Source of the DNA: a bacterium
Lineage (GTDB): Bacteria > Electryoneota > RPQS01
NCBI GenBank assembly: GCA_016702305.1
Contig: JADJEH010000011.1
Coordinates: 19,561 to 83,560, forward strand
DNA length: 64,000 nt
Direction: 5' to 3'
Both the position numbers and the translations under genes were made by a program. This document shows, piece by piece, positions 1 through 39,853 of the stretch (its first letter is position 1; each line of letters opens with the position of its first letter). The notes under the pieces are model-generated. The model was given only the letters and a program-made list of their open reading frames with translations, was not told the DNA's origin and did no database searches.

Positions 1-2918
1 TGATATCTTGCTGTTTGCGAGCGCGCCGTTAAAGTACCTTGTATTTGACGAGGCCCATACATACGATGGCGCCGCTGGCGCGGAAGTCGCGTGTTTGATC
101 AGACGAATTCGAGGATTGGCCCGAAAGTCACCTGAAGAGGTTATCTGCATTGGCACATCGGCGACTTTGACCGATCCGCAGAAAGCAGATGATGACGGAG
201 CTGCCAAACGCTTTGCGTCACGCTTCTTCGGCGTTGATGAAGCCAACGTTAGCTTGGTAGGCGAGGCATACGTCCAACGGGAATGGCCGCAAGAAAGATA
301 TCGGCCGGAACCTCCGCAAGGCAACGGCATGGAAAGAGTGAATCGGCTCATGACTGCACTCGGTGAGGAAGCTGACATTGCCGTCATCAAGTCCGAAGTG
401 GAATGGCTGACAGGCAAAACGTTTGAACCGGGCAAAGATTGGAGAACCTCGCTCTTTGACCACCTCATTGGGAATGATTACGTCTATTGCGCCGAGAACG
501 CTCCAAGGCTCCGCAAGAACTTGTGGAAGGCGCGTGGATTGTCTCAAATCAGCTGAAACCCAATCGTCTTCCTCAGGAGCCTGGCTAACGCAGAACTGCT
601 GGCGTATCTTGCGCTCGGCGCTGCGGCCCGGAAAGATGATGAGTCATTGCTTCGACCCAAGGTTCACTTCTTCATCCGCGGCTTAGAGGAAATGGTTGTT
701 GGGATTGGAGGCGATGCTGATGCCACGAGAGTCGAGCTCTACCCCTCAATCAAACATGGCAAAGACGCAAGGCCGCTCGCACGAGATAGTGCGCTATTTC
801 CAGTGCTCGTCTGTCGTGAGTGCGGTCAGCACTACTTTGAACGGAAGTATGAGAACCTTGAGCTAAATCAGACAGGACGCCGAGTCGAATTGCTCAATGG
901 CAATGCACAAGGTGATTTACTCCGCGGTGGAAATGCGTGGTGGGGGCCGACATCAGCTGATTCAGGCACAAAGTTAGTCATGACCAATCGCCTATTGGAA
1001 GAAGGCGACGAAGATGAAGAAAGCGCGGCAGATAGGAAACTCACCAAGGCGTATCTCTGTCGAGATTGTGGAGCGTTGCATACAAATCCGGGAGAAAAGT
1101 GCTTAGCTGAAGGCTGTGGTCATCTGGCTGCACTGCTCCCGACTTATTTGATAGGCGAGAAGGTCTCGAGTTGCCCGACCTGTCGTGCATTGTCCCGGAA
1201 GATTGGGGGCAGAACGCTCGAGCCAGTGAGGTCGGTGCGCGCTGTTACTGTGTCAGACGTTCACATTCTTGCACAGGAAATGATCAATGCGGCCCCGGAA
1301 GGTCACAGGAAGTTGGTTGTTTTTGCGGATAGTCGTCAGGATGCGGCTTTTCGAGCGGGCTGGATTCAAGATCATGGCCGACGCATCCGGTTGCGTCATA
1401 TGATGTTGGAGGTGATACGCAAAGCTGATCAGCCACTTTCGTTTAATGATCTTACTGACAAGCTCCAAGGTAGCTTCCAACGTGACAAGAAACTCGCAGA
1501 AGCGCTGTTACCTGAAATGTTTGAGGAGGATGCAGCCATCATCTTCGAGCAACGAAACGAGTGGGTTCGCGTGGGCAAGGCACTTGGGTATATGGTGCTG
1601 CGTGAATTTACTTCCGGACTTCGTAAGCGAGAAGTATTGGAAGCTCTTGGCTTAGCGCGGCTCGAGTACAACGGCATCACGGCTGAAGATTCAGGTGTTT
1701 CCGCATGGGCAGCGATGGTGGGCATGGAACCCGAGGACGCTGTGCAAGGAATTTCGTCGTTGTTAGACAACTGGCGAAGAAGCCGAATGCTGTTCGTGCC
1801 GGATGACCCCATCTATTCGCGCTATCACCCGAAGGACAGTCCATATCTTCAAAGTGGAATTCTCCCATTGCGCGATTTTACGCCGACAGGGCTTGTCTTA
1901 AAACCCCTCGCGCAGAATCGAGCAAGGGCGAAGCGTTGGCGGAATCTCGTTAATGACAAAGGTTCCGGTGCGCTCCAAGTTCTTCTGCGAAAATGGACGC
2001 GAGGTCAAAGCAACATTGACGCCATGAAATGGGCAGAATTCCTTTGGGACATTCTTACAACGAATTTGAAGTTGCTTGAGAATGTCATTCTACTTGACTC
2101 CCGAGGTAAAACGCTCGCAGACGAAGTCTGGCAGCTCAACTCGGATTGCATTAAGGTAGTAGAACAGAGTGGGCGTTTCAGATGCAAGAAGTGTCAACGC
2201 GTTACATCACGACCATCTCCCCAAAACCTCTGCATGCAACGAAACTGTGATGGAACGGTCGTCCACGAAGAACCAAATTTTGAGGACTATAACGTCTCTA
2301 TTATGGACCGTGCCTTTACCATGGTCAATGCGGAAGAACACACCGCTCAGGTTCCCGGAACGGTCAGGGCAAAGGTTGAGCAAGACTTCAAATCGGCAAA
2401 GGGTAGAACAAACTGCTTGGTTGCAACTCCCACACTTGGAGTTGGGAGTTGATATAGGCGCGCTAGACATGGTCTTACTCCGGAACGTGCCCCCACAATC
2501 AAGCAATTACTGGCAACGTGCCGGTCGTGCCGGACGTCAGGAGCGCATGGCTGTAATCAGCACTTATTGCAGGAGAGCCAATCACGATCGGTTCTTCTTT
2601 GAGGATCCCTTAAGGTTGCTTAGTGGTTCAATCGCTGCGCCGGCGTTCAATTTGCGAAATCCGGTCATGCTTGAAAAGCATATAAGGGCAACGATACTTA
2701 CTGAATTGTTGCAATTGTCTCACGGCAATACCGAACAAGCAAGACACATTCAAACAGTGCTCAGTGTTTTGTTCCCGCCGTTCATTCGTGACTACTTGCT
2801 GGATTCCAACAACAGTTATAAGACAGATCCACAAACTACCGCGTCACTTGGTACTTTGCTTGACCAACAATGTACTACTTTGACGAAAAACGTTCTTTCC
2901 CACTTCGTGAAATTCTGA
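1..2918 (+). CDS. Superfamily-2 DEAH-box helicase, 5'-partial at the window edge, with Zn-ribbon inserts. The reading frame is broken by an in-frame TGA at 554-556 and a 1-nt indel near 2438
   Basis: Motif II 'VFDEAHTY' and motif III 'GTSATL' lie in ORF 8..556. A motif IV-like 'KLVVFADSRQDAAF' sits near nt 1310. Motifs V/VI 'VATPTL(E)LGVDIGALDMV...QRAGRAGRQ' span the frame switch at ~2440. Four Cys pairs fall between the RecA-like halves (CRECG, CRDCG, CLAEGC, CPTC). Pieces 8..556, 647..2452 and 2169..2918 join into one protein if one base is removed near 2438. Confidence 0.7.
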
Positions 2919-2986
2919 CCAGACGAAACAAATGGGGTTGGTAGATAGGGGCGGATTAAGGCCGTGATACAGACACTCCGGACGAA

Positions 2987-4473
2987 TTGTCATTAGTGAT
3001 ATCGAGGCTTCACAAGCGGCTAGACTGGGCGCTTGATACTCAGAAAGAGCTGCACCGCAAGAAAGAGACTAGGAAACTCGACCAAGAAGAGCGGCAGATG
3101 CTGCGGCGGTGCAACGACTTTATTGAGATATCACGAGTCGTGAACGATCGACTTATACGCTTGCCGTTCTGAGCACCGAAGGTTTCTTCCAGGGTATGGC
3201 ATGTACGAGGGCGGGATCACGGCTTCAGCAGCATCAGGATTTTCTCAGAGGTCTGGTCCAGTCACGTTTGAATTGTCGAGGTCACAAGCCGTTGCGTTGG
3301 GAGAGTTTGTGCCCGGGAATAGGCTGTATGCAAATCGAGGAACCTTCTACGTTTCACGCTACCATCTAGGTGCAGGAACTGAAGGTCAAATTGAATTACT
3401 GTCAGTTGACCCAGAGCAGGGGTTTGTTGCTCGCGAAGGCGTTGCCTCAGCATATGGTCAAACGGGTTTCCAAACACTTTATGCAATGCCAATTGTTGAC
3501 CTAGATATTGCGCATGAAGGTCGCATTACTGAGGACGAGGTCCTTCGCTTCTCAATGCCAGTTCTGATTGCGGGTCGTCTATTGAAACATCATCGAGGTG
3601 GCAAAGCATTCAAAATAGGTAAGTACGGAGACCCACATGTTGCGTGGCCAAGGAATACAGCTTGTGAATCTTGGCGAGGCAGGGCTTGCAAAGGCTAGTG
3701 GAGGCGCCACGAACTAGGGTTTCATATTTGTTCTGTATGTGGGGCAGCCAAAAGCCCTTACGTTGTACCTCTCGAGCGACAACATTTTGATGAACACCAC
3801 AGGGAGCGTTGCGGCCGGGATCCTGTTCAATTAGGTCTATCTGCAAAGACAGACGTTGACATGCTATTGTTCCACAAAATCAGTAGCCTGCCAGAAGGTG
3901 TGAACATTGAGAGATACTAAGAACTGCCGCAGCTCGAATATTAGACATGGGGCACGATGACCTCAACTGATGCCAATACCTGGTTCAGATGGCACTCTAG
4001 ACTACACTATTTATGACCCGATGCCAGGCGGTTCTGGGTTCTTGACCAAATGTTAAAACGTTGGCCGGAGTTAATAGAAGCAGCATATGATGTCGCCTCC
4101 TGCAAAGCCGCTTGCGAGCGTGCCTGTTACATTTGCCTTAAGACCTATCGAAACCAGTTTCAGCATGACCACCTTGATAGAAACTTAGCCCGTACCCTTC
4201 TTGTCGAACTGGGCCAAGCCCCAGAATTGCATCGCGACATTGAGCCGGTCCTTGATAAAGGAGACTCCGGAACTGGGTCACCAAGCAATCCCCCCTGGGA
4301 TGAGCAGATCTCTGCATGGCGACCCTCAGCAACAAGTTCGTGACAATATCATTCGCCAAGCATTAGAACTCGACGGTTTCGCCGTAATTGTAATCCAAAG
4401 CAGAGATCTCAATGATCCGGAAATAATGAGATCGCACATGGCAACTTTGTCGGCCGCATTGTCAAAAGCCTAA
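2987..4473 (+). CDS. Cys-rich Zn-binding region resembling the DUF1998/MrfA C-terminal domain. It is either the helicase C-terminus or a separate DrmB-like partner gene, and has several frame breaks
   Basis: Co-directional ORF pieces 2987..3172, 3201..3698, a frame at 3720-3900 and 4050..4343/4201..4473. Cys clusters 'ICSVCGAAK...HFDEHHRERC' and 'CKAACERACYICLKTY', plus a 'YDPMPGGSGF' motif. It sits directly 3' of a DEAH helicase, as in MrfA, DruE and DrmA/B architectures. The domain call is from memory of family signatures, not a search. Confidence 0.4.
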
Positions 4474-4581
4474 TGACAAGAACAGAGATTTTCGCGGATA
4501 TGGGCGCAGGCGCACCTTACCAAACCATTGTAAATCCCCTCCCGCCTACCCCAGCGTCGCGCATCCGGGTAAAGAACTTGA

Positions 4582-5214
4582 TTGATTATGATACTCGAGA
4601 ACCTTCTTGCATCAATCGTTGGTGGCGCAGTAGTCTGGGGGTTTAGCGAATTGACACATCGCCGACGTTCCTCAGACGAACATCGCGCCGCTATCGGCAG
4701 GGTCCTATTTGACCTCGCTGAAGTGCGGCATGGGTTGACGTATGTCAGCGTAATGGGGGAGTTGTTTGACTCTATGGACGTTAATTTCCTCGCATGACCG
4801 AATGGCTGCAAAGTGACCATTGGCAAGATACTGCCGCCGATGCCAGACCTTCATCAGAGGCTTGATGAGGCGTTGCGCTTCGTGGCAGGTACCGATCCGG
4901 ATCTTGCCTTTCGAATGCGGAGTAAGGACCAAGTCGAGTCAATACTTTCTCGCTGGCAAGCCGTGGTTGCTGAACACATAGATGACATTAGCGCATTACA
5001 AACGAATGAGCTACTCGAACCTCTAATTGTCAATTCAGCATGCGAGACGTTAGACGAAGCCATTCTTGAGCTCGCCAAGCGGCATGGCAAGTCCACGCTT
5101 TCCGACTTTGAAAAGCGTGTCAGCAAATGGAAGGATCGACCTGCACTGCTTGCAGAGGTAAAGAAGGAATTGGCTGAGAAGATCCCGCAGCTTGCTTATC
5201 TGCAGAATGAATAG
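4582..5214 (+). CDS. Hypothetical protein of ~210 aa. A single frame is interrupted by an in-frame TGA at 4798-4800
   Basis: ORFs 4582..4797 and 4813..5214 share frame 1 and are separated by one TGA. No recognisable motif. It lies between the helicase and the SIR2 gene. Confidence 0.3.
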
Positions 5215-5381
5215 GTGGATTCGAGGCGCTGGTTCGTTGATCTAACAGTAAGTAGTATGGCGCCGAGAACCTGACTTTCCAATCTCATTTGGTTATTTTC
5301 TTACTGTATTCGGGCCACAAGAAAGGTCCAATAAGGGTTATCTTGTGACAGGCGACCAACTATAAATCGGGAACATCACCC

Positions 5382-6710
5382 ATGTCTATTAATACATCAG
5401 ACGAGAAATGGAAGAACCACCTTTACAGGACTGGCTCACATATCGGTAGCTATGACGACGTTCCAGACAATCCCGATCAATTGCGTAAGCATATAGAGCC
5501 GTGGCTGTCTGCGGTTTTTCAAAGTGAGCATTTGTCACTACTTCTCGGAAATGGTTTTGGAATAGGGGTTTCCGGTGGCAAATTCATGGCTAGCATGGGT
5601 GTCTCCCGGGATTCGACGGGCCATTGGCCGAATTTGTCGAACAGGCCTCAAGTAGGTCAGCAAAATGCTCCGAACGTGGAGTGCCCAATTTTGAGGACAA
5701 CTTACGCGTTGCAAATGAACTACTAAGAGGACTGGAGATTCTCGCCGATCCTCGCTCAACCGACCTGCAAACGCAAATTGGCACGAAGCTCCAGGTCTTC
5801 CTAAAATCGGTCTTGGAGTCTGAGCGCGACCTCCTCGCTGTCTTTGATAAAGGTGATCCTGAAGCGAACCTTCGACAAAATCTCCTCATATCTTTTCTTG
5901 TTGAGTTTTTGCAAGTCGAACACCATCTCGAGAGAGGCTAAATCTATTTACAACAAATTACGACCGACTTATCGAGTATGGTTGTGACCAAGCTGGGCTA
6001 CGCATCATGGATCGATTTGTTGGGATGTTGTCACCAGTGTTTCGTGCCTCACGTATGAATCTAGACTTTCATTACAACCCTCCCGGCATTCGCGGCGAGC
6101 CACGGTATTTGGAAGGTGTGATAAGGCTGTTCAAATTGCATGGCTCAATTGATTGGCGCCAATTGCGGCGAGAAATAAGGCGTCAGTCACTGCCTTTTGG
6201 CGCGCCTGACAACCATCCTGCGATAACAATGGGTCCACCAGACGGGGTAATCATATATCCAAATGCTGCAAAGACATGGAGACATCCGAGTATCCATACG
6301 CTGAACTATTCCGCGACTTCGCGGCTGCTACGTGCCGACCTAACTCAGTGCTTGTCACTTATGGCTATGGTTTTGGCGATGACCACGTTAACCGCGTGAT
6401 TCGGGATATGCTCACGATTCCTTCAACGCATGTGGTAATTATTTCGTATGACAATCCGGGGAAACGAGTTGAGTCGTTCTGCGACAAAGTGGGCCACAAA
6501 GCTCAGATATCACTCCTCATTGGTTCACACTTTGGTGAATTTCAAAGCCTTGTCGTAAACTACCTACCCAAGCCAGCGATTGATCTCATTTCTTCACGAA
6601 AAACCGAATTGCTACAGCGGCGCGGTGATGAACTACTGAGTACTCCTGACGACGCAACTGTAAAGCAAGGAGCTGGAGTCGGAGGCAATACAAATGCAAA
6701 CACCAATTGA
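5382..6710 (+). CDS. SIR2-family NADase-like defence protein, the SIR2 partner of a SIR2-HerA system. It is split into four frame pieces
   Basis: Gly-rich NAD loop 'LLGNGFGIGVSGG'. 'LFTTNYDRLIEY' reads in frame 1 just upstream of ORF 6007. 'KLHGSIDW' follows. These are the classic SIR2_2 motifs GxG, TTNYD and KLHGS. Pieces 5382..5726, 5624..5941, 6007..6399 and 6276..6710 are co-linear. Confidence 0.65.
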
Positions 6711-8790
6711 AAGTGCTGCTGCACTAACTATCGGAACGGTTGAATCCGTATCGCCATCCGAGATTTGGGTTCTACTCGATACTGATGCACCCCAAGCAAC
6801 CGCTTTGAATGCGGGTACTCCAATCGGATTCCCACGGATCAATGGATACGTATTAATTCCAAACGAGACGGGTGCAGTTGTCGGAATGATTGTTTGGTTA
6901 GGCGTGGAGAGATCTGCTTTCCCAAAGCGACCTGGAATGAAAGACTTTGGTCTTATTGACTTGCCCTATCCGCCCGAAAACTGAAGCTCACACCACTTGG
7001 TACCTTGGTTCAAAGAATGGAGAAGGGAACCTACTCTTACAGGCTAGAGCGTGGTGTTTCTGCCTTTCCATCAGTTGGTGATCCTGCATCATTGCCTACC
7101 GAGACCCAACTTAGGAGCATTATTGAAGCACCCGATGTAGCTGATCAAAGAGTAACGATCGGAACTTCACCGTTGACCTCCAGCGCGCGGGTAACTGTTG
7201 ACCCTAACAAGGTCTTTGGAAGACACCTAGCGGTTCTGGGTAATACTGGAAGCGGTAAATCATGTACGGTTGCTGGCCTTATTCGCTGGTCGCTGGCTGA
7301 AGCTAAGGAAGCGTGTGTGAAGAGCCAAAAGAACAATCAGGTTAACGCTCGATTCATAGTCCTTGATCCAAATGGTGAATATGGCTCGGCCTTTGATGAT
7401 CTAACCTCTGTACGGCACTTCCGTGTACCTCCTTGTGAAGCCCCGTTCAAAGACCCAGTGCTACCTGCCTGGATGTGGAATAGCCATGAGTGGTGCGCTT
7501 TAACGCGTGCTGCGCCTGGAATTCAACGCCCGTTGTTACTGCAAGCACTTCGAGATATGCGAGCAGGAACGGAACTCAAAGAGAGTACTGAACGCCAATG
7601 TTGCCGATATCTTCGTTCTCACCAGTTTTCTCTCGAAAATCGAGTTGTTCGGGGACTTGATGGCTATGCGGCATTCCCAGAGAGCAACAATTGCGGCCTT
7701 CAGTTTGCAAATATTGCAGAAGACACCAAAGAGGTATGCAAGTGAATTCTCGGATGATCAGCACAAATCACTTCAAAACCTTGCTGAAACCGCCCAAAAG
7801 GTAGCGGACAGTCGACATTGGGAGAATCTGGCAAAGGGAACTGGAGGTTATAACGCCTTCAGCGAGTCTGATGTATTATCAGTCATTGAGTGCATTCGCA
7901 AGGCACTTGGAGGCATTCCCGTGAAATTGACAACTGAGCCGATAAGCGAGGATGCTCCTTTGCACTTCGATGTCAATCTCCTTCCCGACCACCTCGAACA
8001 AGTCGCGAATATCTCGCCGAGCTCGCAGGCCTCGCTGCTCATATCGACCCTTACTTTACGAATCCGCATGATGCTAGCAGATCGAGACTGGGACCAGTTG
8101 TTAACCCGGACGCTGCTGCAATTTGCTTCGAAGACTGGCTGAGGTGATTACATTGGGAATGATGGAGCATCAATGGGCAGCTGGTAGTTCTGGATCTATC
8201 GTTGCTGGTCTCAGCTGACGTGCTTCTGGGTTGTCGCCGTCATAGCACGTATCGTTTTTGAAGCAGTACAACGATATCGGCGAATTGAGCACATGGAACT
8301 ACCCACGGTCCTCGTTTTAGAAGAAGCACATTCGTTCATTCAGAGAGGCAGTGAACAAGATGATGGAACACCAAATCCTACGCAGATGTGCCGACAGACA
8401 TTCGAGCGCATTGCTCGTGAGGGACGCAAATTCGGCTTGGGTTTGGTCCTCTCGTCACAACGACCTTCAGAACTTTCTTCTACTGTACTCGCGCAATGCA
8501 ACACCTTTCTGCTTCATCGTATCGTCAATGATCGCGACCAGGAGCTAGTAGGAAAACTCGTTCCTGACAATCTAGGCGGATTGTTAAAGGAACTCCCGAA
8601 CCTGCCGTCCCGCCAAGCAATTCTCTTAGGTTGGGCAGCACAAGTGCCCGTACTCGTAGAGATCAATGAACTTCGAGAAGAGCATCGCCCAAAATCCGCC
8701 GATCCGAAATTCTGGGAAGTTTGGACAGGGAGTGAAGAGCGAACTATCGACTGGAAGAAAATCGTTAGTGACTGGACGGGAACAACGTAG
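6694..8790 (+). CDS. herA: HerA-like FtsK/HerA-family ATPase with an N-terminal HAS-barrel. It is the partner of the upstream SIR2 gene and is split by frame breaks
   Basis: The N-terminal HAS-barrel-like segment is 'IGTVESVSPSEIWVLLDTD...NGYVLIPNETGAVVGMIVW'. Walker A is 'LGNTGSGKSCTV'. The Walker B region is 'VLVLEEAHSFI'. Pieces 6694..6984, 7005..7745, 7507..8142 and 8293..8790 are co-linear. The break at ~6977 is an A-run length change. Confidence 0.65.
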
Positions 8791-9685
8791 TGTGCTAAAG
8801 AACGGAGTGACTGCCCTACTTCGGTTTTGGGCCACGCACTTGGCACAAAAGGTGAGGGGTTATTACAAGTAGAATGTTCGATAAGTCCAGTCAGACGGCC
8901 CGACAGCGTATCATGGTATCGATTCAATGTCGTTCCCCCCAATCTTGAAATTCCGATCCGAATCGTGTATATTGATTCGATTATCATCCGTTTTCCGCAC
9001 GCTCTCGCTTCGACAAATGACGTAAAATCGTCTCGTCGTCGCGCCTGCCTTCCGTCAGCGCATTTGGCACAAAAGGATCAGTATTATTACGGTGTACTGG
9101 AGGGTAAAGGCCCGCTTGCCTGGATTAAAGAGATGATTCACCTTTGAAAGCGCTAGCTTTGTTGTTTACTGAACATAGTTTAGCAGGCCTTCCATGCAAC
9201 TCAAAAGCCGCGAAGGCGACGAAGGCGTGAAGTATTGGTAAATCAATCGTATAACAGCGAATCAAGGTGCGACCCGCGATGACGACACACGTAATCCCGT
9301 TTTGTCACATTGCAAAATAGCGTAGGGCAGAAGTCTCTCCGACCCACGAATTCTGCATAATAAATTCCGACTTTGGCCATAATTGGCGGACTCATTTGTA
9401 CTGGTCGTCACGAAGTGAACGCGTTCTGAGCAAACAGTCGAATAATCGATAGCCTCTAAAATACTCCTAATTGGGTCAGAATTAAGAACTCTGACCCAAT
9501 TTTTTTATTCACTCATTGATAAACAATAACTTATAGATTCCAGCAATGTGGAGAAAATCGAGATATGCATCTGACATTCGTTGACCCACGGCAACGTTCG
9601 CGCTAAATTGTGGATGCGAAGCAGATTCCATCTAGCCGCACGTTTCCCTCCCAGTTCAAGAGTTATCAATTTTACAAGGAACGCC

Positions 9686-12600
9686 ATGAAGACCCTGGTT
9701 TTCGTCTTGCTCACTTTTTGCAAGCTCTGTCTTTGCAATTCCCCAAATTGTCAATACCAAGGTCAGTTAACATTGTCGTCAGGAAGTCCACTGACAATCA
9801 CAGTGGCAATGTCGTTCAGCATTTATACTGAATTTTCAGGTGGTGCTGCGGTATGGACCGAAGTCCATCCTGCGGTCGTGGTCACCGGTGGCCTATTCAA
9901 TGTCAGCCTTGGATCGCTAACATCGCTTAACGATCTATTCGCCAACAATCGTTGGCTTGGAATCACTATCGGGTCGGATGCAGAAATGTTGCCGCGAGAG
10001 CAAATTAAGTCGGTTGCTCATTCTTATCGTGTTGGAACAGTGGATGGGGCAACGGGCGGTGTTATCACTGGGGATGTTCGTGGAACTGCAAAGGGAACCT
10101 TTGGTTCAGGAAGCATCGCTTCTGGTGTCGCTGCAACAGTCTCCGGGTGGTTCGGGCAACACTGCAAGTGGAGAATTAAGCACTGTTGGCGGTGGAGATG
10201 CCAATACCGCTTCAGGAACCTGGAGCACGGTTGGTGGTGGATACGAGAACACAGCCTCCGGTGAAATGTCCACGGTTTCTGGCGGCAATGTCAACTTCGC
10301 GCCATCAGACTACTCAACTGTTGGTGGTGGCGTAGGCAACAATTCATCGGCAGCCTATTCGACTGTAAGCGGCGGCGGCAATAACGAGGCAAACGGCGTG
10401 CATTCAACGGTGGGTGGCGGTACCAGCAATTTGGCCAACGATTACATTACGACCGTGTCCGGAGGACTTAACAACACGGCCAATGATTCCGGTAGCTTTG
10501 TAGGAGGCGGACAAGACAACGTCGCTATGAATTCTTTCGGTACAATCGGAGGGGGACGTAGCAATGCAACAGCAAGCTCCTATTCTACAGTTGGCGGCGG
10601 GCAAAACAACTCGGCATCGGACGACTATGCTTTTGTCGGCGGCGGACAAAATAATACTGCCGAAGCCACAGGCGCGTCCATTGTCGGCGGCGACAGCAAC
10701 CAAGTCTGGTCCAGTCACGCTTTCATAGGCGGCGGACAAAAGAATTACGCCAATGCTTCTGGCGCTGTGATCGTTGGTGGCGCAAATAACATTGCGTTCG
10801 GTATTAACTCAACCGTGGGCGGTGGTAGCTTCAATAAAGTGCGCGGCGACTATTCCCTGATCGCAGGCGGCGGGGGAATACTGCATCCGACTCGAACAGC
10901 ATTGATGCAATTTCTTACAATAGCATGATCGGAAACGGATCTCGAAACAAAGTACAAAACGCGCCTTACGGAGTAATCTCTGGAGGTAACAGTAACACTG
11001 TTTCAAACATGTTTTCTACAATCGGCGGTGGACTTAACAACGTTGCTAGTGGCAATACGTCTACTGTTGGCGGGGGAAACCTTAATCGGGCACGCGGCGA
11101 CTATAGTGTCATCGCGGGAGGAGGAGGCGGCGGCAGGGCAGACTCAAATAGCGCCAGCAACACCAATTCCACTATCGGCGGCGGCAAAAGTAATGTAGCC
11201 AGCGCCATTGGTTCGACTGTTAGTGGCGGTACCCGAAACAGGTCCCGGGGTGACTACTCGGTTGTGAGTGGAGGTGGCGGTGCATCTTCAGCAGATTCCA
11301 ACAGTGCCATCGGTGATTGGTCAACAGTGAGCGGTGGTCACAAGAATTTCTCTGGCGATCAGTTTGCGTCGGTTAGTGGAGGCGAGAATAACGCCGCAAG
11401 CGCGCTCGGTTCAACTGTGAGCGGCGGACGATTCAACCGTGCGAGCGGCGCATATTCAGTAGTTGCAGGCGGCGGAACCTCCTTGCTTGCCGATTCCAGC
11501 AGCGCCTCTGGTCTAAACTCTACGATCAGCGGCGGCCGAAAGCACTCGGCAAGCGGTAGTTACTCGGCAATTAGCGGTGGAAACGAAAACAACGCCAGCG
11601 GTACCTATTCATCCATAGGGGGCGGCGCCAGCAACATAGCAGATGGGATCGGCTCAACAGTCAGTGGAGGTCGCTTCAATCGTGCAAGTGGCCTATACTC
11701 CGTGATCGGCGGCGGCGGCGGTGCTTCAGAAGCCGACTCCAATATCGCCAGCAGTTCTTATGGTACAATCGGTGGTGGTAATCGAAACATTGCCAGCGAT
11801 GTGGGCGGGACTGTAAGTGGCGGGGTTGGGAACATCACGCGTGGTGTCTACTCAACTATCGGGGGCGGCTACAGCAACGGCGCACACGATACAGCAAGTG
11901 TGGTTGGCGGTGGTTACAACAATTCCCTCTATGGAGATTATTCGGTGATCGCAGGCGGCCAGAATAATCACACAGTACACCATTATGCGACTATCGCGGG
12001 AGGCTACGGTAACGAGGTGATTGGCTACTACTGCACCATTTCGGGTGGCGGGGACAATACGGTCACTTACAGTTATGCCACAGTTTCTGGAGGGCGCTAC
12101 AATGGAGCACACGGCAACCATGCCACGATAGGTGGTGGAACCTATAATTTCGCTCGCGCGAGCGGAGCAGTAATCGCTGGAGGTGGAACTGGCTCTGCCG
12201 CAGACTCAAATAGTACGGAGGGTGGTCAATCAACCATCAGTGGTGGATCAAGAAACTATATAGATAATGGCGGATTTGACGGGACAATTGGCGGTGGATA
12301 TTTTAACCGTGTAAGCGGACAGAGGGGCACCGTAAGCGGTGGCTCGCAGAACATCGCAAGCGGAGAATTTGCTACCGTAGCTGGAGGAGTAGGCAATACG
12401 GCTTCAGGCAACTATTCAATATCAATCGGTGGCGCAAGCAACAGCGCAAGTGGAGACGCCGCTACCGTTTGCGGATTTACGAACTCTGTAAGCGGAGATT
12501 ACGCGTTTGCGGCTGGAAAGAATGTGGATGTGGCAGGAACAGGTTCTGTAGCCCTGGGCGCCAACATTAGCTGCAGCGCCGACAGCTCGTTTGTCTTTTC

Positions 12601-13083
12601 CGACGGAAGCGGTCCACTGTTTAGCATAGGTGCAGAAAACACATTCAACGTTAAGGCTAATGGAGGAGGTAGGTTTTGGACGACAGCAGATCACGCTAGC
12701 AACATCGGGACGCGGCTCGCAGCAGGGGATCGTCATGGGTTGCTCTAAGCGATTCAACGAAGAAAACAAATCGAATACCTGTAGATTCAAAAGCAATTTT
12801 ACAGAAGGTCGCCGCGCTTCCGATTGACCAGTGGAACTACAAGCATCAAGCGGATGGCCCTTTGCATATTGGGCCAATGGCTCAGGATTATTGGAACGCA
12901 TTCCATCTCGGTGAAGACAGTTTAGGCATCGAAACCATTGACGCAGACGGCGTGCTGTTCGCGGCGGTGCAGGAATTGGCAAAACAGAACGCGGAGCTGA
13001 AGCAAACAAATGACAAGCAAACATCAGAGATTGCTGAACTCAAGCAGTTGGTAGAACAAATGACTCAACTTGGAAATAAGTAA
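9686..13083 (+). CDS. Tail-fibre-like surface protein, paralog A of ~1,130 aa. It has a signal peptide, a conserved N-terminal domain, a long Gly-rich repeat core and a C-terminal intramolecular-chaperone (peptidase S74) domain. At least three frame breaks are present
   Basis: 'MKTLVFVLLTF...YQGQLT...VAMSF...VWTEVHPAVVVTGGLFNV...NRWLGI...EMLPREQ...HSYRVGTVDGATGG' matches the paralog N-termini. There are dozens of 'STVGGGxxNxASGxxS' repeats. The C-terminus 'IPVDSKAILQKVAALPIDQWNYKHQADGPLHIGPMAQDYW...GVLFAAVQELAKQNAELKQ' is the S74 chaperone signature. Frame switches fall at ~10145 (GGG run), ~12700 and ~12770. Confidence 0.7.
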
Positions 13084-37617: not shown

Positions 37618-37834
37618 TTGCAATTATCGGTCGCGAGCAGTTTGCCTGGCGTCGTTCCAAGGCCTTGGCAAGAGGGCCTGGACGACGCAGGAATAGTCCT
37701 GCTGGCGATGTTAGCGCTCCTGTACTACGCGCTGCTCTGAGAGCAGCATGCATTGGTGAAATGAGCGGCGGTCAGAGCGCAAGACTCTGGCCGCCGCCTC
37801 ATGAGTATATACCACGGATCATCTACCGCCGCGA

Positions 37835-39853
37835 GTGCGGTGCAGAGTGATTCACCACGGACTCGTTACGAGGACTATTGTGCGTTGGCTTAGGCCTGCA
37901 ACACTTTTCGTACTTCTGAGTATTTCGGCGATCTCGGCCTTCGCGGTGCCGGACACGTTGTGGTCCGCCAGGATCACTACCGTCGGCAATCCCGCGATCT
38001 ACGACGCAATGACGCATTCCAGCGCCGATTTTATCGTCGTGGGCGAAACGAATCCCGGCCTGACGAATTCACGACTACTCATTGCTCGGATCAGTAGCGG
38101 TGGCGATGTGCAGTGGACACGCACGTTTCGCGGTTCTGCGCGCATGATCGCCAATTCGTGTGTTGAACTGCCAAACGGAGATGTCGTGGCCGCGGGCAGC
38201 AGCGGCAATGACCTGCTGCTCATGGCTATCAGCTCAGAAGGCGACAGCCTTTGGAGCCGCGTGTATGGTACAGGCGGTGCAACCGTTGCTAATGATGTAG
38301 CTCTCCTGCGCAACGGCAATCTTGCCGTCGTCGGCGCGGGACTCGGCACCGGAGGGATACACTCCGATCTGTTGTTACTCTTCTGCGACACCGGTCTTGA
38401 CACCTTGTGGACGAGGAGTATTGGCGGCAGCAATGTGGATATCGGGTACCGCATCACGGAACGGCATGATCGAACTCTGATCGTCGGCGGGTCATCCAAA
38501 AGCAATGGTGCAGGGGACTTCGATCTCTGGCTCGTGCACACAGACTCCGTGGGCACTCTGTTGTCGTCCGCGTTCGACGGCACTGCTGGGCCGGACAACT
38601 GTTACGATCTGTCTGACGGTGACAGTGTCATTTATTGGGGTGGAAAAACAACTTCCGGCAGTAACAACCTCGCCTATTTGGCGAAGGCCGGCGAATTCGG
38701 TGATTCACTGTTCGTGCGTAGCTACTCGCATGGCGGAGCTGAAGATCAGATTCGTGGAATACTCGCCCGGCGTACTGGCGGCGCCATTCTAACGGGCTGG
38801 TCGGGAATCAGTTGGAACAGCCGCCTCTGTTGGGTTTTTGCAATTGACTCCCGCGGCGATGTTGTTTGGGAGTGGGCGCATGGTCCGGCCGCGAGTGGGC
38901 TTTATGGCGCAATCGAGGTACCGAGCGGTGGTCTACTGGCGTATGGACAAGTCAGCGAGTCCAATACCCGCAAGGGATATGTTCTGCGCCTGATCTTCTC
39001 TGAGATCTCCGGATTCGTCATGGACGCCGCAAGCGGTGGCCCTGTGATGGGTGCGATTGTTTCAATCATCGGCGCAAATCAGCATGCCGTGACGGACTCG
39101 AATGGTGCGTACAAGATTCGCGTCGCCAATGGCACATATGATGTCGGGGTGTCAGGCGCATGTTTTTCGCGGGATACTTTGCACGGTGTTGTCGTTGAAC
39201 CGGATTCCATCGCACATGCGGATTTCGACGTTCTCCGCCCGCAGTATTTCAATGAAATGACGTCACTCAATGCGATGGTCCAAAACGAAGCGGTGACGTC
39301 AATACCACTCGTCATCGCGAATTCCGGCGCAGGCGCCATGGAAGTGGGTATCACCGCTCAGGCAATCAACCCTCCGGGAACATGGTTGAGTGTGGTGCCG
39401 GACACGGCATTGATCGCGGCGGGCGACTCAACGGTCTTTCAAGTTCTTGTCGCGCCGGATACGACCAACGATAGCCGTTATGAGTTCGATGGACAACTCG
39501 TCGTGCGAACGAACTCATGTCCGGGCGAATCAGATATTATACCGGTCATGGTGCAAGTGCTCAATGCCCATAATGCTCCGGCCATCTTGCCCGCGAGTTT
39601 TTCGCTTACGGCTTATCCCAATCCATTCAACGCTACTACGGTGCTGGAGTTCACAGTCCCGTCCACGGCGTGGGTGACACTCTCTGTATTCGACATTGCC
39701 GGGCGGATCGTCACGGTCTTGACAGAGAAATCCTATGCGCCCGGTTTGCACAAATTAGACTTTGCGGCCGGAGATTTACCTTCCGGCATCTACTTTGCGC
39801 ACATTGCAGTCGGCGATTTCAAAGCGACGCAGAAGATTATGCTCATCAAGTAA
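37835..39853 (+). CDS. Secreted beta-propeller-repeat protein with a T9SS C-terminal sorting domain
   Basis: Repeats 'GGDVQWTRTFRGS', 'EGDSLWSRVYGTGG', 'GLDTLWTRSIGGS', 'RGDVVWEWAHG'. The C-terminus 'AYPNPFNATTVLEFTVPSTAWVTLSVFDIAGRIVTVL...GIYFAHIAVGDFKATQKIMLIK' is the type-A T9SS CTD pattern. Confidence 0.75.
   Translation: MRCRVIHHGLVTRTIVRWLRPATLFVLLSISAISAFAVPDTLWSARITTVGNPAIYDAMTHSSADFIVVGETNPGLTNSRLLIARISSGGDVQWTRTFRGSARMIANSCVELPNGDVVAAGSSGNDLLLMAISSEGDSLWSRVYGTGGATVANDVALLRNGNLAVVGAGLGTGGIHSDLLLLFCDTGLDTLWTRSIGGSNVDIGYRITERHDRTLIVGGSSKSNGAGDFDLWLVHTDSVGTLLSSAFDGTAGPDNCYDLSDGDSVIYWGGKTTSGSNNLAYLAKAGEFGDSLFVRSYSHGGAEDQIRGILARRTGGAILTGWSGISWNSRLCWVFAIDSRGDVVWEWAHGPAASGLYGAIEVPSGGLLAYGQVSESNTRKGYVLRLIFSEISGFVMDAASGGPVMGAIVSIIGANQHAVTDSNGAYKIRVANGTYDVGVSGACFSRDTLHGVVVEPDSIAHADFDVLRPQYFNEMTSLNAMVQNEAVTSIPLVIANSGAGAMEVGITAQAINPPGTWLSVVPDTALIAAGDSTVFQVLVAPDTTNDSRYEFDGQLVVRTNSCPGESDIIPVMVQVLNAHNAPAILPASFSLTAYPNPFNATTVLEFTVPSTAWVTLSVFDIAGRIVTVLTEKSYAPGLHKLDFAAGDLPSGIYFAHIAVGDFKATQKIMLIK

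Follow-up and report, generated by a model that had tools for sequence, protein, structure and literature searches.

An ArmC-like helicase gene beside a SIR2-HerA pair in a low-GC defense island of an Electryoneota genome

Do a zinc-decorated DEAH helicase gene and the SIR2-HerA gene pair that follows it encode one composite anti-phage machine, and are the frame breaks that run through all of these genes a record of decay or a product of assembly? These questions are raised by positions 1-8790 of a 64,000-nucleotide stretch of contig JADJEH010000011.1 (assembly GCA_016702305.1; GTDB lineage Bacteria, Electryoneota), which is referred to here as the window. The region was read on the + strand, and all of its named genes are co-directional. 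It contains no long + strand open reading frame (ORF) and consists instead of a chain of short overlapping open frames. Pfam searches with the raw fragments gave only weak matches, and the same fragments matched the PADLOC models for DruE, SIR2, and HerA colinearly: pieces at 2-4343 aligned with positions ~250-1675 of the DruE profiles, pieces at 6007-6710 with SIR2 model PDLC04079, and pieces at 7005-8790 with HerA model PDLC04098. A motif search recovered, on the + strand and in place, every motif that a preliminary description of the window had named.

The explanation that is considered highly probable as a whole is that window 1-8790 represents the right-hand part of a low-GC, horizontally acquired defense island, in which two independent and previously described systems, one of the ARMADA type and one of the SIR2-HerA type, lie together with one small gene. 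The GC content of the island is 0.48-0.50 versus 0.52-0.60 elsewhere in the window, and no tRNA, tmRNA, or Rfam element that might serve as an integration-site boundary was found within the window. Both systems are already described and experimentally characterized, and none of the region falls outside known systems. Only an ARMADA operon variant in a relative and an uncharacterized family of small, putative membrane proteins beside restriction-modification-type genes are mildly new.

The helicase gene and the system to which it belongs

The preliminary description placed four Cys-pair zinc-ribbon inserts between the RecA-like halves of the helicase and a Cys-rich DUF1998 region behind it. The inserts are present and comprise six Cys pairs, which fall in two stretches (812-1183 and 2183-2248). 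The DUF1998 region is present as well, and in an intact relative it lies in the same 1796-amino-acid (aa) frame as the helicase: this protein (P0037, encoded on contig L001) contains the Pfam DEAD, Helicase_C, and MZB/DUF1998 domains in a single frame, with PF09369 MZB covering residues 1559-1635. Helicase and DUF1998 are one gene, not two modules. The gene starts upstream of the window, which begins at codon ~254. Overall DNA identity to the intact L001 gene is 92.9%, although it is mosaic along the gene, ranging from 87% to 99.4%, and the frame-corrected window protein is identical to P0037 at 1357 of 1440 residues (94%). NCBI protein MBK6911325.1 (IPH10_10430) has exactly the sequence of the 601-aa ORF at 647-2452, and its 90% cluster also contains fragments IPH10_10425 and IPH10_10435 along with the intact P0037; P0036 and P0001 are NCBI fragments of the same helicase gene of this metagenome-assembled genome (MAG).

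Genomic context for the helicase was drawn from five helicase-bearing contigs. Three of these (L001-L003) represent one close variant from three sequencing runs, assembled by Logan from public runs, and two (L005 and L006) carry relatives of ~50% identity; a contig scan using P0037 as the query recovered no relatives. The L001 helicase gene comes fifth in a cluster of co-directional genes (Table 1), of which the first two encode an SNF2 helicase and an N6-adenine methyltransferase. When compared with the experimentally tested ARMADA locus of E. coli ATCC 8739, the SNF2 helicase matched ArmA (2e-27) and the methyltransferase matched ArmB (2e-16), while pairwise bit scores of P0037 were higher with E. 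coli ArmC (177 + 140) than with E. coli DruE (129 + 123). ARMADA consists of a BrxHII-like SNF2 protein (ArmA), a PglX-like methyltransferase (ArmB), and a Druantia-like YprA helicase (ArmC), and the order ArmA-ArmB-ArmC is found in type II and also in type I of many archaea and cyanobacteria (PMC12458937; Bell et al. 2025). ArmC itself combines a BrxA-like insert with a beta-barrel bearing CxxC zinc-binding modules where RecA2 begins, and adds a MarR-like domain, an OB-CON-DUF1998 region, and a C-terminal Vsr-type nuclease; the CxxC modules have been published as characteristic of the ARMADA/Druantia helicase clade (PMC12458937). Published helicase representatives are WP_108720193.1 for ARMADA I and WP_000937974.1 for ARMADA II.

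The L001 cluster and its helicase resemble this description in several respects. In the L001 operon, an SNF2 helicase of the BrxHII/DrmD-like kind, a PglX/DrmMI-like methyltransferase, and the helicase reproduce the order ArmA-ArmB-...-ArmC. Both the window helicase and P0037 are YprA-family DExH proteins in which an OB-CON-DUF1998 region is fused to the core, CxxC modules separate the RecA halves, and the C-terminus is apparently a Vsr-like nuclease. The position of the Cys-pair insert appears to correspond to the beta-barrel and MarR-associated zinc modules described for ARMADA/Druantia helicases. At the C-terminus, P0037 gave a weak match to DUF2726 of the PD-(D/E)xK type (0.004), and its Vsr-like motif (EPDW...VYLNG...H...D..R) aligns by eye with the Vsr region of E. 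coli ArmC. Because of the SNF2 and PglX-like partners in the 93%-identical intact relative, the CxxC modules, the fused DUF1998, and the apparently Vsr-like C-terminus, the window helicase is probably a YprA-family, DruE-related protein of the ArmC type. The helicase had earlier been regarded as unassignable, from sequence alone, to a named system; the partners in L001 and the zinc modules allow it to be named. More generally, zinc-decorated DEAH helicases with a fused DUF1998 that have gone unnamed, or under the label DruE in older tools, can now be assigned to ARMADA when SNF2 and PglX-like partners are looked for beside them. A 2026 paper reports that DefenseFinder by now recognizes ARMADA II.

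The resemblance to the armABCD loci of E. coli ATCC 8739 and EDL933 is incomplete. P0037 is only 23-33% identical to E. coli ArmC, is shorter (1796 versus 2113 aa), and has a single Vsr-like domain with neither an EEP domain nor a second Vsr. Two extra genes, encoding proteins of 326 aa and 338 aa (REase-ARP/PD-(D/E)xK), are present between methyltransferase and helicase in L001. In ARMADA type II, ArmC is directly followed by ArmD, a GajB-like UvrD helicase that has a RelE domain. No such gene comes after the window helicase, where the gene for the small, putative membrane protein and SIR2-HerA are found instead, although in L005 the homologue is followed by a UvrD gene. In the window itself, half of the nuclease domain is deleted and the partner genes would lie off the left edge.

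A set of further observations weighs against the ARMADA assignment. PADLOC calls the helicase DruE, and its relation to ArmC was gauged by pairwise scores. The helicase combines a single nuclease domain, more like type I, with the gene order of type II, and the L001 operon, with its two extra genes and no ArmD, is an exact fit to neither published type. No ArmA- or ArmB-like partner occurs within the window, whose left edge cuts the cluster. Three proteins encoded upstream of the helicase in L001 were checked through their 90% clusters, none of which contains a member from the MAG, and a homologue search with the REase retrieved no IPH10 protein. Finally, fold searches with the insert yielded weak RecA-like and winged-helix matches only, although an AlphaFold2 (AF2) model of it showed a beta-rich N-terminus.

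ARMADA and Druantia helicases are sister clades (PMC12458937). That the helicase belongs to a Druantia system as DruE, and not to ARMADA, is nevertheless improbable. The best PADLOC matches of P0037 were indeed DruE1 (2.1e-113) and DruE3 (1.7e-111), with a large YprA-type architecture, zinc modules, and DUF1998 in common, and the best sequence match in the PDB was 9tu7_Y, a 2108-aa DEAD/DEAH helicase (7e-58). Yet the PADLOC release used dates from 2023 and predates the 2025 description of ARMADA, and no ARMADA-named model surfaced in any search. None of the four upstream L001 genes matched a DruH, DruABCD, or DruMFG model, the first two being DrmD-like and DrmMI-like instead. The pairwise scores favor E. 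coli ArmC, and the C-terminus appears Vsr-like and is not a PLD, which is double in Druantia III.

Other helicase families were weighed as well. Class 1 DISARM has in common with the L001 cluster the DrmD-like and DrmMI-like partners, which gave strong profile matches, and the core chemistry of a helicase and DUF1998; it differs in that these are split as DrmA and DrmB, whereas here they are fused, and in its PLD protein DrmC, which is absent here. DrmA models matched P0037 at only 8.6e-23. The preliminary description had raised an ordinary repair helicase, such as Lhr or RecQ, in a housekeeping neighborhood as the finding that would speak against it. The YprA-family core is common to MrfA (6znp_A, 1.4e-23) and, more distantly, to Lhr-type helicases, but a protein of 1796 aa with defense-clade inserts and matches to DruE models at ~1e-113, preceded in L001 by genes for an SNF2 helicase, a methyltransferase, a 326-aa protein without a match, and a nuclease, followed in the window by SIR2-HerA, and lying in a low-GC island, makes a repair function of the MrfA/YprA, Lhr, or RecQ kind scarcely credible.

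If the ARMADA assignment is right, the window helicase would be the last gene of its system, and the SNF2 and methyltransferase partners would lie to the left of the window. If the system works like the tested ARMADA II of E. coli, self DNA would be labeled by the methyltransferase, and the helicases would travel along phage DNA and stop its replication directly, leaving the cell alive.

The two genes that are inserted between the ArmB-like methyltransferase and the ArmC-like helicase of the relative, encoding the 326-aa and the 338-aa REase-ARP proteins, occupy L001 7912-9984. The REase-ARP family is widespread (718 hits). A role as an ARMADA-specific component was rejected for it, as L015, the sole homologue for which context was read, is solitary, with an integrase and a TrwC fragment for neighbors.

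The SIR2-HerA pair and its relation to the helicase

The SIR2 and HerA frames of the window are not intact as assembled, containing four and six one-base breaks, respectively. They were corrected by frameshift-aware alignment to proteins encoded on a Methylocella tundrae plasmid (L011), which restored a SIR2 of 415 aa through four one-base events and a HerA of 698 aa through six; neither contains an in-frame stop. PADLOC profiles applied to the frame-corrected translations, a check envisaged in the preliminary description, matched both proteins end to end. Corrected SIR2 covers positions 7-415 of the 430 in PDLC04079 (E = 5.8e-169), and corrected HerA covers positions 1-685 of the 686 in PDLC04098 (E = 7.6e-287); a central HerA fragment also matched Pfam DUF87 (6e-18). 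The N-terminal segment of HerA would be the HAS barrel named in the preliminary description. SIR2 ends at 6710 and HerA starts at 6694 on the same strand, giving a 17-nt overlap.

The end-to-end profile matches, the overlapping co-directional genes, and the catalytic motifs together support the pairing that had been proposed earlier, and 5382-8790 is assigned on its sequence as a canonical SIR2-HerA pair, a separate and known two-gene system that is also called Nezha (8j4u, 8su9, 8xau, 9c1m, 8yhx). Relatives in the PDB include 8j4u_A and 8yhx_G for SIR2 and 8xau, 9c1m, 8j4u_M, and 8wiv for HerA. As in these systems, the genes form an overlapping two-gene operon, and the SIR2 GxG, TxNxD, and KLHGS motifs and the HerA Walker A and B motifs are present. 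There are three differences: the window HerA is ~698 aa in length, as against 562-617 aa for most of those solved (one, 8wiv_A, has 696 aa); identity to the closest plasmid homologues, from Methylocella and Bradyrhizobium, is only 55-69%, with corrected SIR2 55% identical and HerA identical at 383 of 705 positions to the Methylocella tundrae proteins; and ten one-base frame breaks are present in the window pair. The characterized SIR2-HerA homologues assemble into a single complex of a SIR2 dodecamer with a HerA hexamer, which upon infection unleashes NADase, ATPase, and nuclease/nickase activities that lead to growth arrest (PMC11472057, PMC11514289, PMC13434337). By extension from these homologues, the complex encoded in the window would deplete NAD+ and attack DNA once infection is sensed, arresting the cell.

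Whether helicase and SIR2-HerA might form a distinct or composite module was left open in the preliminary description. The genes run in one direction and lie within 1 kb of each other, and no terminator-like site occurs between them on the + strand. Downstream contexts of the relatives differ. The contigs of the close intact relative stop 89 nt past the helicase stop and are uninformative on downstream genes, but the two more distant relatives extend further and lack the adjacency: L005 contains a UvrD/ArmD-like gene downstream of the helicase, and L006 contains AAA, REase-ARP, and AIPR genes. SIR2-HerA is found alone on plasmids, and the paper describing ARMADA makes no mention of SIR2 or HerA (PMC12458937). 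Both systems are complete and functional alone elsewhere (PMC12458937, PMC11472057, PMC11514289). In the window, moreover, a methyltransferase remnant and the small gene at 4515-5214 separate the helicase from SIR2-HerA, as a recombination scar and an unrelated gene, respectively. For these reasons (the other downstream genes in two relatives, the solitary plasmid pairs, and the silence of the ARMADA paper), the adjacency is attributed with good confidence to the clustering of neighbors in a defense island, and a single composite machine is highly improbable. The biological weight of the locus is accordingly small, both systems being characterized and their adjacency being ordinary defense-island clustering.

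Table 1. Features of window 1-8790 and genes of the helicase cluster in the intact relative (contig L001)
Feature	Position	Strand	Basis	Details
ArmC-like YprA-family helicase, 3' 86% (codons ~254-1796)	1..4473	+	PADLOC DruE colinearity, intact L001 gene	RecA1 end, CxxC zinc modules, RecA2, fused OB-CON-DUF1998, truncated Vsr-like C-terminal nuclease
Helicase motifs	DEAH 47-58, SAT 158-166, QRAGRAGR 2514-2537	+	motif search	
Insert between RecA halves, six Cys pairs	812..2248	+	motif coordinates	CRECG 812, CRDCG 1058, CLAEGCG 1100, CPTC 1172, CKKC 2183, CMQRNC 2231
DUF1998/MZB zinc-binding region, same gene	3729..4136	+	PF09369 MZB, motif coordinates	CSVCG 3729; 4-Cys cluster CKAACERACYIC 4101-4136
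Helicase one-base indels	near 503, 583, 2435, 2934, 2950, 2973, 3128, 3187, 3627, 3703, 3909, 3962, 4039	+		
152-bp deletion junction versus intact allele	4295..4296	+	alignment to L001	
Remnant of PglX/DrmMI-like methyltransferase 3' end	4515..4580	+	tblastn	PYQTIVNPLPPTP, ~20 last codons
Small ~209-aa protein	4588..5214	+	homologue family	in-frame TGA 4795-4797
SIR2 NADase gene	5382..6710	+	PDLC04079 match, motifs	GNGFG 5547, TTNYD 5950, KLHGS 6133; one-base breaks near 5610, 5894, 5907, 6265
HerA ATPase gene	6694..8790	+	PDLC04098 match	Walker A GNTGSGKS 7239-7262, Walker B LVLEEAH 8311-8331, SSQRPSE 8452; one-base breaks near 6973, 7734, 8083, 8145, 8170, 8229
L001 gene 1, SNF2 helicase			PADLOC DrmD 6.4e-174; SNF2-rel_dom, Helicase_C	
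L001 gene 2, N6-adenine methyltransferase			DrmMI 1.1e-124; type IIG 7e-264; Eco57I, N6_Mtase	1668 aa
L001 gene 3, protein without match				326 aa
L001 gene 4, REase-ARP/PDDEXK_13 protein				338 aa, PD-(D/E)xK
L001 gene 5, helicase P0037				1796 aa

Origin of the frame breaks

The frame breaks suspected in the preliminary description are real features of the sequence as given, and none of the four genes is intact in it. About 26 lesions occur in 8.8 kb, consisting of 23 one-base indels, two in-frame TGA codons, and one deletion of 152 bp. The helicase gene contains 13 frameshifts, a TGG->TGA change at 2916-2918, and the deletion at 4295. The deletion causes a further shift of frame and eliminates residues 1688-1738, so that the Vsr-like nuclease loses its N-terminal half, with the EPDW and VYLNG strands. 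The small ORF contains one in-frame TGA, SIR2 four frameshifts, and HerA six. An alternative genetic code was rejected as an explanation of the two TGA codons, as table 11 gives clean reading frames in the intact relative and in the remainder of the window. The next gene, which encodes a Gly/Asn-rich repeat protein (window 9575-12748; weak LbR_Ice_bind match), is open in three overlapping frames and has two apparent breaks, near 10.19 and 10.87 kb, after which the repeat motif resumes in another frame. The zone of frame breaks apparently reaches ~10.9 kb, where GC also rises. Beyond 10.9 kb, the large ORFs that were checked showed no evident frame break: AcrB (1057 aa) covers positions 2-1020 of the 1021 in its profile, an aldehyde dehydrogenase and an ABC-F protein cover theirs completely, and ORFs reach 2026 aa.

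The strictly local distribution of the breaks weighs against an artefact of assembly, as do the deletion and the two TGA substitutions, which are atypical of consensus errors. Genuine decay of the island, in which all four genes would be true pseudogenes after loss of selection for defense, has several observations in its favor: ~26 lesions in 8.8 kb, with two more apparent up to 10.9 kb, are followed by large ORFs that look intact; the deletion takes out half of the nuclease domain; and the changes at 2916 and 4795 are substitutions, not indels. In addition, the NCBI annotation lists the pieces as separate proteins, and the methyltransferase remnant is a sign of past rearrangement at the locus.

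The pattern of substitution is at odds with decay. Mismatches between the window and the intact allele are distributed over the three codon positions as 39/30/216 (76% in the third), and 191 synonymous codons are opposed to 64 non-synonymous ones, a pattern that indicates purifying selection and not drift. The balance of lesion types is also discordant. Window 3501-4600 is ~99% identical to L001, with 10 substitutions and a divergence of 0.6% and 1.5% in the two 500-nt blocks of 3501-4500, and this stretch contains five one-base indels in the gene and one just past its stop, plus the deletion, for an indel:substitution ratio of ~0.6. In bacterial mutation this ratio is far lower, roughly 0.1. 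Nearly all indels are exactly 1 bp. Seven of the 11 that could be placed unambiguously (window 2435-4040 versus L001 13198-14806) lie within 3 nt of a GAG on the + strand, where the background frequency is 10.5% (binomial p = 3e-5); just one of the 11 falls in a homopolymer of 3 nt or more. Such GAG-biased indels look like the signature of a systematic error in base calling or consensus, or of an odd mutational context. Once corrected, SIR2 and HerA are full-length on their profiles and free of stops, and the two apparent breaks of the next gene are confined to its 5' third, in the same low-GC stretch.

On the strength of the codon-position pattern, the indel:substitution ratio, the GAG bias, and the stop-free, full-length corrected SIR2 and HerA, most of the 23 one-base indels are, on balance, probably consensus errors of a long-read metagenome assembly, and decay of the island as a whole is a possible but unlikely explanation. 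The lesions most likely to be genuine are the 152-bp deletion and the two TGA codons. The MBK69... accessions are presumably part of a long-read MAG set from activated sludge.

The ArmC-like loci of L005 and L006, two ENA contigs with names that point to a long-read assembler, are likewise broken into many short ORFs, and in L006 the entire SNF2/methyltransferase region is in pieces of 99-267 aa. Together with the mosaic identity to L001, these fragmented loci fit a poorly resolved, strain-variable island, although the argument is circumstantial. The six frame events in HerA alternate strictly between -1 and +1, and the four in SIR2 sum to zero, so that each gene keeps its net frame; the alternation in HerA may be due to chance (about 1/32) or may be a property of consensus polishing.

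Two further readings are jointly very unlikely. In the first, the indels would be genuine and would derive from a GAG-specific (+ strand) mutational process limited to the ~11-kb island, amounting to targeted or hypermutational silencing of a costly defense island. In the second, which is milder, the L001 operon (ArmA-ArmB-326 aa-REase-ARP-ArmC, without ArmD) would be a third ARMADA subtype and the ~210-aa membrane protein an unrecognized defense accessory.

Under the explanation by consensus error, the locus offers a practical lesson: strain-variable islands in long-read metagenome assemblies can hold dense, context-biased one-base indels beside clean-looking chromosome, and apparently pseudogenized defense islands in such MAGs should not be taken as biology without read support.

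The small gene, the methyltransferase remnant, and the flanking chromosome

Between the helicase and SIR2, a search with the C-terminus of a PglX/DrmMI-like methyltransferase from another contig (L007) detected the end of such a gene (tblastn, E = 6e-05), and DNA identity between window 4515-4937 and L007 3295-3718 is 66%, running into the small gene. The segment at 4515-4580 is best read from its sequence as a recombination scar. The junction between helicase stop and methyltransferase remnant is also present in Logan contigs (98% identity up to window 4561).

The ~210-aa ORF noted in the preliminary description was located at 4588-5214. Its family includes 88 representative homologues of ~200-220 aa, the best being P0158 at 61% identity (55% identical over 209 aa in the alignment of the window protein), and gave neither a Pfam match nor a significant PADLOC match. 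A hydrophobic segment near the N-terminus suggests a membrane helix. In L007 (3366-7431) the homologue directly follows the methyltransferase, the stop of one gene and the start of the other having a base in common, and is itself followed by an McrBC pair; in L016 (2-811) it follows a gene whose C-terminal 63 aa resemble, by eye, the tail of a type I HsdS. This family of small, putative membrane proteins is a candidate restriction-modification-associated accessory, and its occurrence beside restriction-modification-type genes is a minor lead. A partnership of the small ORF with the helicase was considered and rejected: what comes after the helicase in L005 is only its own detached Vsr end, and the small gene of L007 has a methyltransferase, not a helicase, in front of it.

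The flanking chromosome differs in content from the island. Window 34714-59138 encodes large secreted proteins, one of which has a Por_Secre_tail sorting domain of the type IX secretion system (T9SS; 37805-39850), along with CarboxypepD_reg domains, S8 and M14 peptidases, a 2026-aa beta-helix/cohesin protein, and the AcrB pump. These genes for secreted proteins suggest that the host lineage uses type IX secretion.

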